Origin: Schmidtea polychroa
Taxonomy: Eukaryota
DNA length: 64,000 nt
NCBI GenBank assembly: GCA_044892525.1
Contig: CM097885.1
Coordinates: forward strand, 19,780,001 to 19,844,000
Direction of reading: 5' to 3'
Below the pieces are notes generated by a model that saw only the letters and a program-made list of their open reading frames with translations, was not told the origin of the DNA and ran no database searches. Below are positions 1-11,992 of this stretch, in pieces; position 1 is the stretch's first letter, and each line of letters begins with the position of its first letter. Made by a program: the position numbers and the translations under genes.

Positions 1-481
1 TTATACGAGACCGATATTTTGATTTCTTCTTTCATTACACTGTTTTCTTCAAATAGATTAAAACGTAATAAATACTCGGTCTCTGTAACAATATTTTTCA
101 ACTTATTGCAACCCATTCGTTTGGCATCTTCAATAGTTTCGAATGTTATTGTAAATGGTTTAAAATCACAACTGATATTTAATCCTTCCTTGTAAAACAT
201 ATAGCAATGCGAATCTAATATTTGATTCGGAATATGATATGTTTTATCATAATTACTGATAACAAAGATACCGCTACATGTTTTCACAATATTCCTTTTG
301 AAATCAATCTTACATTGACTATAAAATGGGAATGTGTTGTACACGAATGTAAAATCTTGCAGTGCAACTTCCCAGTCACCATTTAAAGAAATCGGATTCT
401 GGAGATTGACCATGAATTTACTGGCTTGATTGTCTGGATGAATTAATGGACAACTATTGCTCGGTAAAATAGTATAAAAAT

Positions 482-485
<4 letters not shown>
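1..485 (-). CDS. Polinton minor capsid protein (penton), 5' part, runs off window
   Basis: Manual translation NFYTILPSNSCPLIHPDNQASKFMVNLQNPISLNGDWEVALQDF matches the typical FY.tLPSNS...F...L..PI.L.G.WEVAL penton N-terminus. Its first codon is GTG overlapping the integrase stop (GTGA). Confidence 0.8.
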
Positions 486-1651
<1,166 letters not shown>

Positions 1652-1712
1652 TACAGCAAGAAGATTTAAAATTAAATTTAATGTCGGGCAATGAAGGATT
1701 AGCACCCATTGT

Positions 1713-2258
1713 TTATGATTGATTTCCTACAACTCCACCTAATAATGATAATGCCAGAGGTATCAATGCACCAATAAATCCACCTTGTTGTTTATATATA
1801 ATTTTACTCATTTGCTTACGAATTTTATTATTTACTAAAGATAACAATGGTTTCCTATGTTTGCTCAATAAATGCTTTTTTGATTTACTGATTTTAATTT
1901 TGCCTTTGACTACTTTAAGTATAATATTGAGTAAATCATCGACAACAAAATTTGGGAATGATTGCAATATATTCATTCTTTTCATACTCGGGGCCTTTAA
2001 CAATGCATTAAAAAATGGAAAACTGCGATGATTTTTAACTACTTTTTTACTGATTTTACGTTTACTGGTTTTATGTTTACTGGTTTTACGTTTAGGTTTA
2101 GGATTTTTCGAAATAAGATTCATTGCAGAAAAATTTTCAGTAACAAGTTTTTTAGATGGTGTATAACTAGTTGTTGGTGGAACTTTTGGAACTTTAATAC
2201 TCTTTCTAATACTTTTTCTTAATTTCCTAATATTTTTCACCCTTGCTTTTAGAAACAT
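1713..2258 (-). CDS. Basic virion core protein with pX/cupiennin-like C-terminal peptide
   Basis: Very Lys/Arg-rich; ends QQGG|FIGALIPLALSLLGG, resembling an adenain cleavage site followed by an amphipathic helix as in adenovirus pX. Confidence 0.7.
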   Translation of the reverse strand: MFLKARVKNIRKLRKSIRKSIKVPKVPPTTSYTPSKKLVTENFSAMNLISKNPKPKRKTSKHKTSKRKISKKVVKNHRSFPFFNALLKAPSMKRMNILQSFPNFVVDDLLNIILKVVKGKIKISKSKKHLLSKHRKPLLSLVNNKIRKQMSKIIYKQQGGFIGALIPLALSLLGGVVGNQS

Positions 2259-2276: not shown

Positions 2277-2903
2277 TCAACTTTGTTTATAAACCATGGC
2301 ACCTTTTGGGTTGAAAATATCTGTTTTTACTCGTAAATCATCGGGACATTGTTGTGTGAAATCAAGAAATATATATCCATGAGGTATTTTTGTAGCATCT
2401 TGAAATGCACTGATAAGAAAATTACGATTGTTAGGGTATGCTTGACGTGCAAGAAAATCAATCACTGTTGCATCTCTAGGATTCTTGAAAATAACTAAAT
2501 ATTGTATATTTAAATTACGTGTTCGATGTGCACCACCTTGATGAAATAGATTTTGTGTTATGAAAATAACTGTTACACCAACATGTCTGCTGATTTTAGT
2601 AAATAAATTATTAAAATCCTTTTCTTTATTAGCTTCTTGATACAAATCATCGATAATAATGACATCACCTTTCTTTAATCGGCTGGACCAGTTTTTATCG
2701 AATCCCTTTACTATTTTCATGTTTTTTAATTTACAGAAACTTGATTGAGTTAATCCATGTTCTTCATCAGCACCCCTATGCCAATAAATCCTGTTGAATT
2801 TTGATTTGAATAAATTTGATTTTAGTAATTTACAAACAAATAATGTTTTTCCACTACCACTCGGACCAACGATTTGGTATACTGCATCATTTCTTAATTC
2901 CAT
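2277..2903 (-). CDS. Polinton A32/FtsK-like packaging ATPase
   Basis: Walker A GPSGSGKT, Walker B IIIDD, SRH, ITQNLF, FKNPRD, PHGYIFLD motifs. Confidence 0.93.
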   Translation of the reverse strand: MELRNDAVYQIVGPSGSGKTLFVCKLLKSNLFKSKFNRIYWHRGADEEHGLTQSSFCKLKNMKIVKGFDKNWSSRLKKGDVIIIDDLYQEANKEKDFNNLFTKISRHVGVTVIFITQNLFHQGGAHRTRNLNIQYLVIFKNPRDATVIDFLARQAYPNNRNFLISAFQDATKIPHGYIFLDFTQQCPDDLRVKTDIFNPKGAMVYKQS

Positions 2904-3002
2904 TTCAAAAATTTTATAAATGTGTATTTGTTTATATTCGATGATTTAATGAACTCGTGCTCAATTTGTATATAAAGACTAACTTTCATAAATGATTTAA
3001 TA

Positions 3003-3440
3003 ATGTTAGCAAATATAAATTATCGAGGAAATTTTGATGTATCGAATATGAGGTTTCCACCAGGGAAACCTCAGCAAATTATCGATAGAAGCGGGAAATA
3101 CCCGATAATATTTTTCAAGACTGGTAAATGTAGAATCATGGGATGTAAGAAACCCTTGGATATTAATAAATTACAATATCGAATAAATAATATTAAAATC
3201 CAATCAATTACCATTACTATGGATATGGGACATAGTATCAATCTATATAACATGTCGAAAAAATGTGATTGTATGTTTGAACCGGAATTGTTTCCGGCAC
3301 TAAGACTAATAAAATATAACCCTATATGTGTCAACGTGTTTGCTAGTGGAAAGGTTGTCATGCTGGGGTTGAGAAATTTGGAGTATAGGGAATTTGTTGA
3401 CAATGTTCGAAATGAGATAATTTCATTGGTCAATTTCTAA
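3003..3440 (+). CDS. TATA-binding-protein-like protein
   Basis: Two TBP repeats: IIFFKTGKCRIMGCK and FEPELFPAL...VNVFASGKVVMLG (compare TBP YEPELFPGL...LIFVSGKVVLTG). TATATAAA at 2969-2976. Confidence 0.85.
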   Translation: MLANINYRGNFDVSNMRFPPGKPQQIIDRSGKYPIIFFKTGKCRIMGCKKPLDINKLQYRINNIKIQSITITMDMGHSINLYNMSKKCDCMFEPELFPALRLIKYNPICVNVFASGKVVMLGLRNLEYREFVDNVRNEIISLVNF

Positions 3441-3515: not shown

Positions 3516-3922
3516 ATGTACAACATACAAAGTTCCGCAATCACCTCAATGAAAGAGCATGCAAATTATGGTAATTTCAAATTTTTATTATTACATTAAT
3601 ATATATTTTTACAGATGAATGTCAATCAATTATCCTGCAAAGATTATGCTTCTATTATCCAGAATTAAATGAAATTCTACAAGATAGAGATCCAGCTATC
3701 ATTCCGGATTTGGTATACAACCAAACACGAATCTGGATATTCGATATAATAAACACCTTTCTATGGGATGTCAAGATAGGAAGGGTGATGAAAGAAATGA
3801 AACCAGAGGCTCCTTGCATTTTCGGATGTAGCTGCTGCAATTTCCGTTATCAACAATATGTTGAATGGTGTTTGGTGAAGACTCTGAGAAATCACCACTC
3901 GAGTCAGATTGTATCAAAATAA
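3516..3922 (+). CDS. Spliced Polinton accessory gene of unknown function (FLWDVK...CxxC...HH family)
   Basis: Exon 3516-3570, GT-AG intron 3571-3614, exon 3615-3922 in frame. Homologous to ORFs at 29698 and 33444. Confidence 0.75.
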
Positions 3923-3936
3923 ATTTTTATGTTGAA

Positions 3937-4676
3937 TTGTTTTGTTTTTGTAAATCGAAAAAATAGAAATAGAAATAATAATAGAAATAGTAATAATATA
4001 AGTAATAATAGTAATATTAGAAATAATAATAATAAAAACAATATTTATAATAAAAACATTAATGCAACATTAATGCAAATGACATACAATTTAAACAAAG
4101 ACATGCAGCAATCTGATTGGTTGATAAACATTAGTCATAGGTATAAAATCCCTTTAACATTTCATTTTAATCATAATTCACGATGACAAAGAAAATTTCA
4201 AGCACTGAAAAGCCGAAAGTTGTTCCAGAACTTGTACAACCTGTTCAAATGTTCCACAACTATAAAATGTATTTTTTAAAAGAAGAAATCAATATTGTTT
4301 TGTTTTTGTAAATCGAAATAATAGAAATAGAAATGATAATAGTAATAGAAATAGTAATAATAGTAATAATATTAGAAATATAAATAATAATAGTAATAAC
4401 AATATTAGAAATAATAATAATAAAAACAATATTTATAATAATAAAAACACTAATGCAACATTAATGCAAATGACATGCAATTTAAACAAAGACATGCTAT
4501 AATCTGATTGGTTGATAGGCATGAGTCAAAGGTATATAAACCCTGTAACATTTCAATTTATTCATTATTCACGATGACCAAGAAAATTTCAAGCACCGAA
4601 AAACCTAAAGAAATGGTACAACCAGTTCAAATGTTCCACAACTACAAAATGTATTTTTTGAAAGAAGAAATCAATA
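3937..4676 (+). repeat. Tandem duplication (~360-380 bp unit) of the promoter and 5' end of the 4574 gene
   Basis: ATTGTTTTGTTTTTGTAAATCGAAA at ~3937 and ~4294; MTKKISSTEKPK encoded at 4183 (truncated copy) and 4574. Confidence 0.9.
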
Positions 4677-4984
4677 TGAAATTGGTTGCACCCGTCAAGC
4701 TAATTCCAACTAAATTTCAATTCTTTTCCGGCACGCTTTCAATGATAGATGTTAAAACTATTGATGATGTTTTTAAACGGATAGATTCGAATCTATCGTG
4801 TAATCAACATGCCTGGTTCAACAACAGATACGCAAGATTTTACGATGCTTTTGATGAAATCGGTTTCAAAGAAAATGAAAATTGGTATATAACAATTGCA
4901 ATCCAGGGATATAAAGTTGATAATAATGATGTATATTCCCCTATTTGGAAAATTATGTCTGCTAGACTATCACAAATATTTTAA
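4574..4984 (+). CDS. Polinton accessory hypothetical protein
   Basis: ATG at 4574 downstream of CCAAT and TATA motifs; open to 4984; AATAAA follows. Confidence 0.65.
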   Translation: MTKKISSTEKPKEMVQPVQMFHNYKMYFLKEEINMKLVAPVKLIPTKFQFFSGTLSMIDVKTIDDVFKRIDSNLSCNQHAWFNNRYARFYDAFDEIGFKENENWYITIAIQGYKVDNNDVYSPIWKIMSARLSQIF

Positions 4985-5116
4985 TGTTATATTTAATAAA
5001 TGTATTAGTCATATTTGTTTTTTTTCTTCTATTTATTAATTGCAACATAAATGCAAATGCCATGCAAATTTAACAAAGAAAATCTATAAACAAACTTAAA
5101 ATATAGCTTTAAAGTG

Positions 5117-5602: not shown

Positions 5603-6123
5603 TTAATTTTTATTTAAAATTCGAGATATAACATACAAAATAGCAACACCTGTTGCAAGTTTTACATAGGTTTTAAACTTCATTTTATGCTCGTCGATTT
5701 CTTTTGCATTTCGAGCGAGTTGGTTCAATACACCCCATCCGCCATTGGCTTCTATCTATGGTGTAAACTTGGACTTGATTATCTAGAAAATAAATATTAT
5801 TAAAATATAGATTATAAAAGTATTACTTCTTGAGACCACTGATAATAGTGCTCGGAGTCCCATAAACTTTTTTCTATGATGATTTTAATATAAGCAAACA
5901 CTACTATTATTCGGGTCCACTTCATCTCGTCATCACATAGACAATTAAATATCCGGTGAAAAAAAAACTTTTTTGTTTCTAGGCAATCTGACTTGAGCAT
6001 ATCTTCGTAATTGATGTGATTCCCTTCGATAATTTTTTCTGTCCGATCGACCAAGTAACTGAGGCTTTCCATGATGTTCTTGTTGATAACTTCGCTTAAA
6101 ATATTTTCAATAAAATGAGACAT
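5603..6123 (-). pseudogene. Bcl-2-family protein, spliced, with one nonsense codon
   Basis: BH1-like LCDDEMKWTRIIVVFAY; intron 5783-5826; BH2-like P*IEANGGWG (TAG at 5756-5758 where Trp is expected); C-terminal hydrophobic anchor VKLATGVAILYVISRILNK. Confidence 0.8.
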
Positions 6124-6348
6124 TTCTAAAATAATTTAAAATATAATGTTTTATTTATACTAATACCGTATGATTCTGATTGGTTGATAGACTATAAATG
6201 TAAAAGAAAGGTTTTGATTTGATACACCAGGAAAACTATATTCATATTGCTAATTATTATAACAAGTGTGTGCTAACACAATACTATAAATTTTATAATA
6301 TTCGACTATGTTTTTAGTTAACCATGATTTGTGATAGAAATTTGAAAT

Positions 6349-6859: not shown

Positions 6860-7094
6860 CATTGATGAGTCATATGTATTTGTTCTCAAGTCGACCTTGA
6901 ATGCTTGATGAGTCATATGTCTTTGTTCTCAAGTCGACCTTGAATGCTTGATGAGTCATCGGATGAGTCATATGTCTTTGTTCTCAAGTTGAAAAAAAAA
7001 ATTTTTTTAATTTTTTCCGGCGGGGGGGGAGGTGTTGTAAAAAATGTCTTTGTGCTGGCGGTGACCTGTTTTCGCGGTGACCAATCCATCTACT
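6860..7094. repeat. Polinton terminal region with repeated GATGAGTCAT units and two GCGGTGACC repeats
   Basis: ~43-bp tandem unit at 6864-6990; TTTTTTCCGG-G-run; GCGGTGACC twice before the terminal TCTACT. Confidence 0.75.
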
Positions 7095-9579: not shown

Positions 9580-11992
9580 ATAATCATTATATCATATTTT
9601 GTGACAATTATTCATTTTTAGTGAACTTGTTGTGCATATCAAAGCTTCAATTATAGCATTTGTCACGACTGAGATAATGAGGCCATCCCCATGGAAGGCC
9701 GAACCGGTCAATTTGACCGGTATCTTGAAACACACAAGAAAGTCACACATAATCATCTTATATACTAGAAAATATAAAACCAAATATAATTTACACACAA
9801 CCGAAGCATTTAACAGTCATTTGGGAATGTTTTCCACAGTAAACTTTACTACATACATGGCATATAGCTCCGGATTTGTTATCACAATGAGGAGCAGAAC
9901 AAGTTTTTCGCTTCTTTAATTTTGGTTGTTCAGAACAGAGTTCAACAGAGATGGGACTTGCTGTTCGACGGCTTTTGAACTCCTCACAAAGAGATGTAGC
10001 TAATTCAAAAATAAAATCCCTTCTTTTTATAGTTGATCCCGTAGCATCTTTGAAAATAACATGAGCGTTGAGAGCTGCTTTATCAAGCAAATCATAGAAA
10101 GTAGCGACTGGCCATCTTGCTGTTGCGGCTTTACTGCTGTATAAACGCAACATGCTATCCATGGTATCTACAGCTGTCTTATCTTTGTTATAAAAGTGTA
10201 TCATTTCAGGCTTTCTCTTTTCGTCAGATCTCACACTAGCAGTAGAATGGAATGTTGACATGACAATGTCTTTCTTGTCCGATTTGCCTTGATAGGAAAC
10301 AGTGACAGTGTTTTGACACGATAAATGAGTCGATTCAAAAAGAGGCTTTTTCTCCAAGTGAGCTGATGATAAAAAGCGTGAATTTAATCTTACAGTACCA
10401 ACCAATGTTGTTCGATTTACAAGGAGATGTTCAGCTAGTGAGAGACTTGTAAAGAAATTGTCAGTGCAGACATTGTATCCTTTATTGAAAAATGGCTCCA
10501 TTAGTTTCCTTACTACAAAATCACCCAGTCGTAATCCACAGCGTTCGTTTCTATCGTGAGCCCCTAAATATGGCATTTGATTGATTACAAATTTGGTTTT
10601 GACATCACTGAGAATCCAGTATTTGATACCGAATTTATCAGGCTTATTTGGCATAAATTGGATGAAGCAACACCTATTTTTAGCGGCAAAAGTTGCTCGT
10701 CGACAGTAAGGAAGGGATTAGGAGTATAAACTTGAAGACAGTTTGAAACAAACAAGTCAAATATTTCACGAAAATGGGCATATTTATCTTGTTCTACTCT
10801 TTGACGTCGAGAACATTGTTCATCAAAACGAAGAAAGCGCAGTATCTCACGGAAACGGTTCCGAGACATGACTTCTCTGAAGTAAGGAGATCCAAATTGA
10901 GATGACCAGATTGAATTGATAGAATGTCGGCGAAAGCCTAACACACCACGGAGATACAGCAATCCAAGAAAAGCATCTAATTCTTGTAGACTGATACACC
11001 AGTCTGACGAAGCTTCTTTTCCTTTCATAATTGTGTATTTTTGAATTAACTTCAGCATTCCCTCAGAGACTATCAAGCGCCAAGCGCTCAGGAGTGAGTC
11101 AATTTTGCGCTTTGCAAAAGCTTTCACACCAGGTGTTCCACTAAAAATATTGTGCGCAGGGAATCTACCAACACTAATAGCGTGATTGTTTTCTACTCGA
11201 TTCCAAAGAGTGCCATCCCTGCTAGATAAAAGCTGATTTTCTAATGAAGAAATTGAGCTATTGACTGACTCATTGTCACTTTCTAACGAACTTCGATTAT
11301 CATCAGAGTTCCATTCATGTAACTCTTCGTCAGAATCATTTCTTTCGGGCTCATCATCACTTCCCATAGGCTGATCTTCATCTTCGGAGAGAGCAGCGTC
11401 AATATTCCATAGCTTCTGTAAAGCACGTTGAGCAGCAATTCTTTTAGTTGGCATATTTGATTCTAAAATAATGATAAAAACTCCGTCAGTAAAATAAGAA
11501 ACGTCAAATTTATTATTGGATTCTAATGAAAACACGGTTTTATAATGTTTGTTATCCCAAGAAGTTCAAAGATTTTCTATAACAATTATTAGATATTGTC
11601 TTATGACATTTCGTTAAGTTTTTCGTTTGATTCTTTTAATTTACCAAATTTCAAAACTTAGAACTCTTAATGCTTGCTTAATTACACTTTTAATAAGCAC
11701 TATCTTTGAATAAAAGCAAGAGAATATTTATAAACAAGAAATGTTTAAAATAGTGTAGCTTTGTGTCAGCTAAACAAATATTTTTATTTCATTGTTGTAA
11801 GTAGTTTAATAAATTAACTACTGTTAGAATAAAAATAGTTAAATTTTGAAAGCGTGTTAGTAGCACAAAGAAAGTATTGCTAGATGAGTTGCATCATAGA
11901 AATCTCAGCATGAAAATAAGGAGCATATGTGCACCGGTCAAATTGACCGGTTTGGCCTTCCAAGGTATAAAATATTTCCGGCCGTCCTAGTG
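9580..11992 (-). mobile_element. piggyBac DNA transposon 1, left end missing
   Basis: Ends CCTAGTG-TTAA (11993-11996). Internal palindromic repeat ACCGGTCAA(A/T)TTGACCGGT at ~9703 and ~11933. No matching TTAA-CACTAG found on the left. Confidence 0.85.
9791..11454 (-). pseudogene. piggyBac transposase (PGBD4-like), frameshift near 10680
   Basis: MSRNRF, TVDEQL, MPNKPDKFGIK, TDNFFTS, AVDTMD and C-terminal Cys-rich domain, split over two frames. Confidence 0.92.

Follow-up and report, generated by a model that had tools for sequence, protein, structure and literature searches.

A Polinton in the window (the whole stretch of 64,000 nucleotides of Schmidtea polychroa DNA that was analysed) encodes a conserved miniature TATA-binding protein (TBP). 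We consider it likely that this protein is an early-to-late switch acting through a box of its own, host TFIIB and Pol II. Host factors would first transcribe the TBP-like gene (3003..3440, plus strand) from a canonical TATA box. Its product would then bind (T/C)ATAAACA boxes before the packaging and putative capsid genes and, once bound, recruit host TFIIB and Pol II with no need of TFIIA or TAFs, turning the virion module on.

The TBP-like protein and its family

An earlier note on this DNA had proposed an intact 145-aa ORF with both TBP repeats, and this has been corroborated. The ORF list gives 145 codons without a stop, and the Pfam TBP family (PF00352) matches in two stretches (E 1.3e-15, 57.4 bits against a cut-off of 22.9). 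Every PDB sequence match is a TBP-containing chain (best E 7.5e-11), and the ESM Atlas returns TBP clusters. The AlphaFold model, built from an 88-row alignment, has a mean pLDDT of 95.9. With this model Foldseek finds 44 matches at E<=0.001 (best E 1.8e-9), all TBP among the matches listed. VIA-align superimposes 145/145 residues on yeast TBP 66-240 (Z 13.2, rmsd 2.4), whereas the best non-TBP fold reaches Z 6.7. The protein has the two-lobed saddle fold of the TBP family.

The C-lobe is near complete and the N-lobe is without helices H1 and H2. The protein is about 35 residues shorter than the TBP core. The first repeat is indeed shortened, as had been noted: residues 1-61 of the model contain no helix of four or more residues. 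In the accessible text of PMC7221094, the N-lobe is the binding place of TFIIA, TAF1, Brf1 and Mot1. The helix H2 surface for these factors is absent and replaced by a 13-residue gap with no helix. Deeper family members (L084, L102) retain part of H2, so the loss looks stepwise.

For the residue mapping we assumed the yeast TBP numbers E186 and V203. The register comes from the VIA-align superposition together with the alignment, and the yeast numbering from a table in the accessible part of PMC12529657. Like cellular TBP (PF00352), the protein has a full-length saddle, the EPELFP stirrup of the C-lobe, and three kinking phenylalanines plus the proline: F38, F97, F113 and P98 correspond to yeast F116, F190, F207 and P191 and are conserved in 98, 100, 100 and 92% of the family alignment. 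The TFIIB-stirrup glutamates E93 and E95 are conserved at 97% and 99%. Unlike cellular TBP, it lacks H1, H2 and the F99 equivalent, leaving three of the four DNA-intercalating phenylalanines, and its DNA face is re-specified. N6, R44, M46, S68, T70 and N111 stand in place of V71, V122, T124, N159, V161 and L205, and are 90-100% conserved.

The gene belongs to a sizeable family. At least 191 non-redundant relatives (<90% identity) were obtained from 231 aligned, with a median length of 153 aa, and 110 of 113 candidate public proteins match at E<=0.001. From 181 metagenome loci 80 were kept, most of them short. A Polinton core gene is found in 38 of these 80, and in 18 of the 21 loci of at least 4 kb. 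An IMG/VR scan with the family alignment gave one distant TBP, and a scan of the same resource with the ATPase gave no matches. Within the genome a first look returned 4171 candidates, a rough figure; all 150 that were scored are intact and at least 97% identical, in what is a query-biased set. When copies are picked by their ATPase instead, the TBP-like gene adjoins in 30/30, including the window's own copy, and is broken in five (three frameshifted, two with stops). Neither of the two conditions that the earlier note had named as refuting its reading holds: the fold is that of TBP, and in sister and distant elements, where the note had proposed to look, the gene is present, mostly intact and under purifying selection. 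Other subfamilies in the same genome carry TBP-like versions only 54-63% identical, beside ATPases that are up to 96% identical. L125 and L173 are examples, each with an ATPase 96% identical to the window's and a TBP-like gene in the 54-63% range. This disparity points to module exchange at the ATPase/TBP boundary.

Selection and phylogeny had also been suggested earlier as checks. The median dN/dS is 0.19 over 27 non-independent pairs, with 8 of 83 ORFs left out of the pair test as cut or broken. Among 27 ungapped copies in the genome pN/pS comes to 0.31. The variants that copies share comprise 14 synonymous and 11 non-synonymous ones; the 3 frameshifted copies were left out of this codon count. 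A 55-row tree (37 rows from Polintons, 11 from archaea, 6 from the host, which alone stands for eukaryotic TBPs, and 1 from a virus) places the 37 Polinton rows on one side of a long branch at 100/100, apart from the host and archaeal rows, to which the protein is 19-26% identical. The Polinton sequences had been retrieved through their similarity to the query, and three of the host rows are single exons. The tree speaks to the separation of the Polinton family from host TBPs, not to the donor.

What if the gene were a recently captured, neutral host TBP pseudogene? The host does have several divergent TBP paralogues, some of them intronless. However, identity to three host rows is 19-24% over 89-143 columns, the clade stands on its long branch at 100/100 apart from all six host rows, dN/dS is about 0.2, and the ORF is closed and intact in 75 of 83 loci. 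The selection test and the tree rule this reading out, and we give it practically no credence. The TBP-like gene is real, conserved and under purifying selection.

The host has basal factors of its own in some number. Its TBP family counts at least six genes, of which several are divergent and some have no introns (L115-L124; G000:C1:244.96 Mb, C1:41.96-42.00 Mb, C1:195.75 Mb, C2:182.64 Mb and C2:132.29 Mb). There are also at least 13 TFIIB-like ORFs, intronless, divergent, about 300 aa long and partly in tandem (L189-L191; G000:C3:38.2-39.1 Mb and C1:23.85-24.19 Mb). A Polinton polymerase fragment lies within about 4 kb of such ORFs in two of the three regions read. Two further host genes we take to be Brf1-like.

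The surrounding Polinton

The element had been called a Polinton, and it is one, of a high-copy family. The packaging ATPase is of A32 type (208 aa, 2277..2903, minus strand; Pox_A32 E 2.1e-7) and stands head to head with the TBP-like gene across 99 bp, as had been described. Next on the minus strand come a basic 181-aa protein (1713..2258), a putative virion core protein to judge by position and composition, and a 75-aa ORF with a Met-Gly start (1482..1709), the family of which occurs in 11 loci. The rve integrase (737..1651, minus) is broken; it contains a long TAA microsatellite and its frame ends at 304 aa, versus 362 aa in a sister copy. The 5' half of a conserved 357-aa Polinton gene (3..536, minus), presumably PZ or minor-capsid-like, has no family match and runs past the window start. 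The stretch before the window adds a 122-aa gene (p122), a truncated putative capsid gene and a split polymerase. The latter is a family B DNA polymerase in split ORFs (L031:2510-6021), with an intact relative (L042) matching PHROG DNA polymerase at E 4.8e-20. An adenovirus-type cysteine protease is missing from the window's copy; it is found in a sister copy 19 kb away (L032) and in relatives, so that the integrase, packaging ATPase and protease of Polintons are all accounted for.

The capsid assignment is putative. A conserved ORF of about 410 aa sits at the usual place, with only a weak profile match (E 0.007) to a DJR-positive protein and no match in Pfam or PHROG; its single-sequence model (pLDDT 30) is too low to use. 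A search of the neighbouring stretches for terminal inverted repeats and a target-site duplication gave no matching end for the window's copy. This copy is defective, with its integrase cut short, its polymerase split, its capsid gene truncated and its protease missing. Altogether the element resembles Polintons, Mavericks and adintoviruses as the accessible text of PMC8502044 and 10.1101/697771 presents them: a pPolB-like polymerase, rve integrase, packaging ATPase, adenain-like protease, putative capsid genes and a Bcl-2-like accessory gene. In the window, the Bcl-2-like ORF (5812..6123, minus) is a weak match (E 0.0022, below the curated cut-off) with a same-strand canonical TATA at 6159.

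Several other features of the element deserve mention. The TAA microsatellite (1110-1262) lies at the same integrase place in several copies, where the frame is kept as a poly-Ile run, and is absent in relatives; it may lie in an intron. Behind the TBP-like ORF, 3516-3922 (plus) is a probable two-exon gene with a predicted 44-nt GT-AG intron (3571-3614) and a Cys/His-rich second exon. Four runs that we guessed to be RNA yielded only contigs spanning the gene; these show no splice joint where the intron is predicted and are uninformative on expression. Further on is a 136-aa ORF of no known family (4574..4984, plus), which adjoins the TBP-like gene in 21/80 metagenome loci and has no match in the ESM Atlas. 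It is preceded by an octamer (4464), a reverse CCAAT (4507) and TATATAAA (4533). The octamer ATGCAAAT marks three promoter-like cassettes (4063-4150, 4454-4545 and 5041-5095). The first two continue into a reverse CCAAT and a TATA-like word, an arrangement that resembles histone H2B promoters. Behind the first lies a truncated duplicate of the 136-aa ORF. Near the element's probable right end (6860-6975) are tandem 43-nt repeats with TGAGTCA, an AP-1-like word. In 23 loci (e.g., L110:2851-3330) a conserved ORF of 160 aa lies close to the TBP-like gene. Its family has no Pfam or PHROG match; we take its acidic motifs to resemble those of a DEDD exonuclease. Elsewhere in the window, a piggyBac-like transposase (DDE_Tnp_1_7) is split over two ORFs at 9791-11454 (minus).

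Two promoter classes

The spacer between the ATPase and the TBP-like gene contains the canonical TATA box TATATAAA (2969..2976, plus), 34 nt before the TBP-like ATG. The earlier note had pointed to this sequence; it is present as stated, but as a target of the protein the candidate is ATAAAC on the other strand. On its own TATATAAA is weak evidence, since it occurs in 4.2% of 2000 spacer shuffles and TATAWAWR in 16.9%. Across relatives the signal is firmer: TATAWAWR precedes the TBP-like gene in 23/55, versus 5.3 (maximum 13) in shuffles, and is frequently accompanied by CCAAT and, 30-32 nt on, by a TCA initiator-like word; ATAAACA precedes the gene in 0/55. TATATAAA is probably the gene's own promoter, read by the host, and presumably early. 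TATAWAW is absent from 27 of the 55 upstream regions. TBP-like genes with no canonical TATA (L036, L040, L050, L056, L075, L078, L080, L082, L086, L092 and L095) often have TGTTTTA or TGTTTAA about 45-65 nt upstream. This is a reverse relative of the box described below, and either autoregulation or another factor is possible. The divergent layout itself was considered as a functional feature and rejected, being found in only 2 of 26 metagenome loci that hold both genes.

The second promoter class is defined by the ATAAAC box. The window has five, all on the minus strand (2935, 2290, 1795, 1716 and 555), one ahead of each module gene. TATAAACA at 2929..2936 lies 32 nt before the ATPase ATG and is the candidate target of the TBP-like protein. 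The same word recurs at 2284..2291, where it is spelled by YKQ codons at the end of the ATPase and stands 32 nt ahead of the following ATG, and at 1789..1796, within the basic gene 86 nt before the small Met-Gly ORF. CATAAACA (1710..1717) is 65 nt before the integrase ATG, and GATAAACA (549..556) precedes the gene after that, 19 nt from its first ATG and 43 nt from its second.

Is the box a general feature of these elements? Motifs were counted in upstream regions from related loci, with near-copies thinned by shared 10-mers; because the box-bearing loci are kin, all fetched through the TBP-like gene, the counts are not independent. ATAAAC lies within 80 nt upstream of the ATPase start in 24 of 25 elements, versus none antisense and a shuffle mean of 2.0 (maximum 6). 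The distance is 31-37 nt in 17/25 and never below 31. Upstream of other genes the box is found for the putative MCP (8/9), the conserved 357-aa gene (8/10), the basic gene (6/8) and the protease (4/6). It is patchy before the integrase (7/16), p122 (2/7) and the polymerase (1/4), and is also seen before the 136-aa ORF (4/17). Over 14 modules ATAAAC occurs 130 times in sense and 17 times in antisense.

Many boxes fall inside the end of the preceding gene. ATAAAC is spelled in 21 of 23 ATPase tails, by YKQ, HKR or NKH codons, and in 8/8 p122 tails in another frame. Ile-Asn pairs are written ATAAAC in 18 of 25 cases in gene tails (2.9 expected), versus 8 of 132 in gene bodies. The corresponding test on xKQ-type words is weaker (31/39 with 20.5 expected, versus 15/44). 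Within coding sequence, then, the box is constrained at the DNA level, as synonymous constraint.

The same genome holds another Polinton family, with no TBP-like gene in the three regions read, and here the box is found at 0 of 17 starts. This control is one distant family only (ATPase 23% identical), not a set of independent losses. The family (G000:C3:134882735-134897551, L170-L172, and L173-L176) has its own peculiarities. Most of its ORFs start right behind an A/T run ending in TAAA or similar, and one integrase ORF has a phospholipase A2-like domain. An A/T run with a TAAATG start is poxvirus-late-like. Perhaps the second family depends on a different transcription system.

The proposed switch and its alternatives

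The likely explanation is that the box is a core promoter some 30 nt before the start site and that the TBP-like protein reads it. The protein would bind TATAAACA in preference to TATAAAAG. The C that distinguishes the box falls in its 3' half, the half read by the N-lobe in solved TBP-DNA complexes, and would be explained by the rebuilt DNA face of that lobe. Loss of the N-lobe helices would free the protein from control by TFIIA, TAF1, Brf1 and Mot1. We infer that the TFIIB partner is the host's and that the two promoter classes are timed early and late. No TFIIB gene was found near the TBP-like gene in 93 loci scanned (best E 0.39), many of them short. A complex prediction of the protein with a TFIIB core 92% identical to a host exon scored 0.49, versus 0.00 for the best of three controls, with at least 95% of contacts agreeing between runs and a partner pLDDT of 85-86. 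This lends weak support: of 78 solved pairs only 5 passed at a score of 0.60 or less, the range in which all 4 passing mismatches fell, and passes this low are wrong more often than right unless the pair is likely beforehand. TBP-TFIIB is a solved pair, so the pass may come from likeness.

The earlier note had left a choice between redirection of Pol II and a decoy. Redirection fits better, because a matching element-specific box has been found, and the decoy is less favoured, both functions being judged from comparison. As a decoy, the element protein would titrate TFIIB or damp host or early transcription, and a host TBP or paralogue would read ATAAAC. In its favour, the TFIIB stirrup is intact on a protein minus one kinking phenylalanine and two helices, the host has six or more TBP-family genes that might recognise ATAAAC, and the Foldseek matches include wild-type TBP solved on a C(-25) TATA variant. 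However, the DNA face is re-specified rather than decayed, with six new residues 90-100% conserved and three phenylalanines kept. Nor does the idea explain why the box is missing from the gene's own promoter (0/55) and from the TBP-less family (0/17). We regard it as unlikely. Less likely still is a role at the box as a repressor, or as a DNA bender for purposes other than transcription (latency, replication or packaging). The protein lacks the N-lobe surface that binds TFIIA and TAF1 in the accessible part of PMC7221094, and so might fail to form a productive complex. Three features nevertheless agree with a functioning core promoter: a distance to the ATG with a fixed minimum of 31 nt, strict orientation of the box, and retention of the TFIIB glutamates.

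Two further readings concern the box itself. The Forkhead consensus is RYAAAYA, which the heptamer ATAAACA fits, and a reverse TGTTTTA-type word precedes some TBP-like genes. It is nevertheless very improbable that the box is a host Forkhead site with the TBP-like gene unrelated: 81 upstream windows hold ATAAAC 61 times, GTAAAC 4 times and reverse words once, and locking of strand and distance is unexpected of such sites. TATAAA, CATAAA and GATAAA are minor poly(A) signals, and stop codons are close to many of the boxes. Even so, it is scarcely credible that the box serves the gene upstream of it as a variant poly(A) signal. The canonical AATAAA is avoided (the AATAAAC form is 2 of the 61), there are cases (window, L125, L126, L043, L081) in which the box stands before the ATPase although no gene on that strand ends there, and the p122 box is 11-26 codons ahead of the stop.

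The switch reading can now be set beside known systems, of which the herpesvirus vTBP/TATT system comes closest. As far as the accessible text of PMC12529657 goes, both have a viral TBP fold with polar DNA-face swaps at V122, V161 and L205, a TATA-like but non-canonical box in front of structural genes, promoters of host type for the early genes, and host Pol II. KSHV ORF24, the vTBP in that text, has 752 aa, works in a six-protein complex, has four phenylalanines and no TFIIB glutamates, and is a predicted non-binder of TFIIB. In contrast, the Polinton protein has 145 aa (one fifth), three phenylalanines, both glutamates and no partner genes seen, and its box is (T/C)ATAAACA rather than TATT. 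It is a TBP fold only, without herpes-type Pol II- or ORF34-binding domains, and apart from Polinton core genes no partner family co-occurs with the TBP-like gene across all clades. The herpesvirus system has been demonstrated experimentally, on the same accessible text, whereas we infer the Polinton switch. By analogy, then, the Polinton system would work like vTBP/TATT without being a member of it. Large-DNA-virus TBPs (BFVD matches and the accessible text of PMC7221094) have likewise lost the N-lobe regulator surface. In that text, nearly all such viruses also encode TFIIB and the stirrup glutamates are variable; unlike them, the Polintons keep the glutamates (97-99%) and have no TFIIB gene in the 93 loci.

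Has any of this been described before? In the accessible text of Starrett et al. (PMC8502044, 10.1101/697771), TBP is only a label in the legend of a MELD-virus figure, in the section on non-animal datasets. That text contains no TBP family, residue analysis or promoter box. Neither TBP nor such a box occurs in the accessible parts of PMC10748475, PMC11296320, PMC12220804 and 10.64898/2026.10.13.758929; Repbase, subscription papers and preprint supplements may hold earlier annotation. What appears new is the Polinton TBP family with its private box, as a variant of a known viral transcription switch whose function here is suggested by comparative signals.

The finding bears on whether animal Polintons make virions and how their genes switch on. 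Sequence evidence for a regulated late phase comes from the pairing of a dedicated factor with a matching box in front of the packaging and putative capsid genes. For TBP the case amounts to a natural experiment, in the parts of the saddle that are dispensable and the residues that change the sequence read. If specific, the pair (145 aa and an 8-bp box) would provide a Pol II promoter system that is both orthogonal and compact. Since candidate copies number in the thousands in the genome, on a rough count, any expression could touch host promoters too. The boldest statement, which in our view could equally be right or wrong, is that in a lineage of animal Polintons a single gene acts as a transcription switch that is in part orthogonal. 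Its product, smaller than any other TBP in this analysis and without the host docking surface, would read TATAAAC, use host TFIIB and activate the virion genes. If true, these 'transposons' would have a programmed early/late nuclear viral cycle, independent of herpesviruses, and the box would mark late genes across the lineage.
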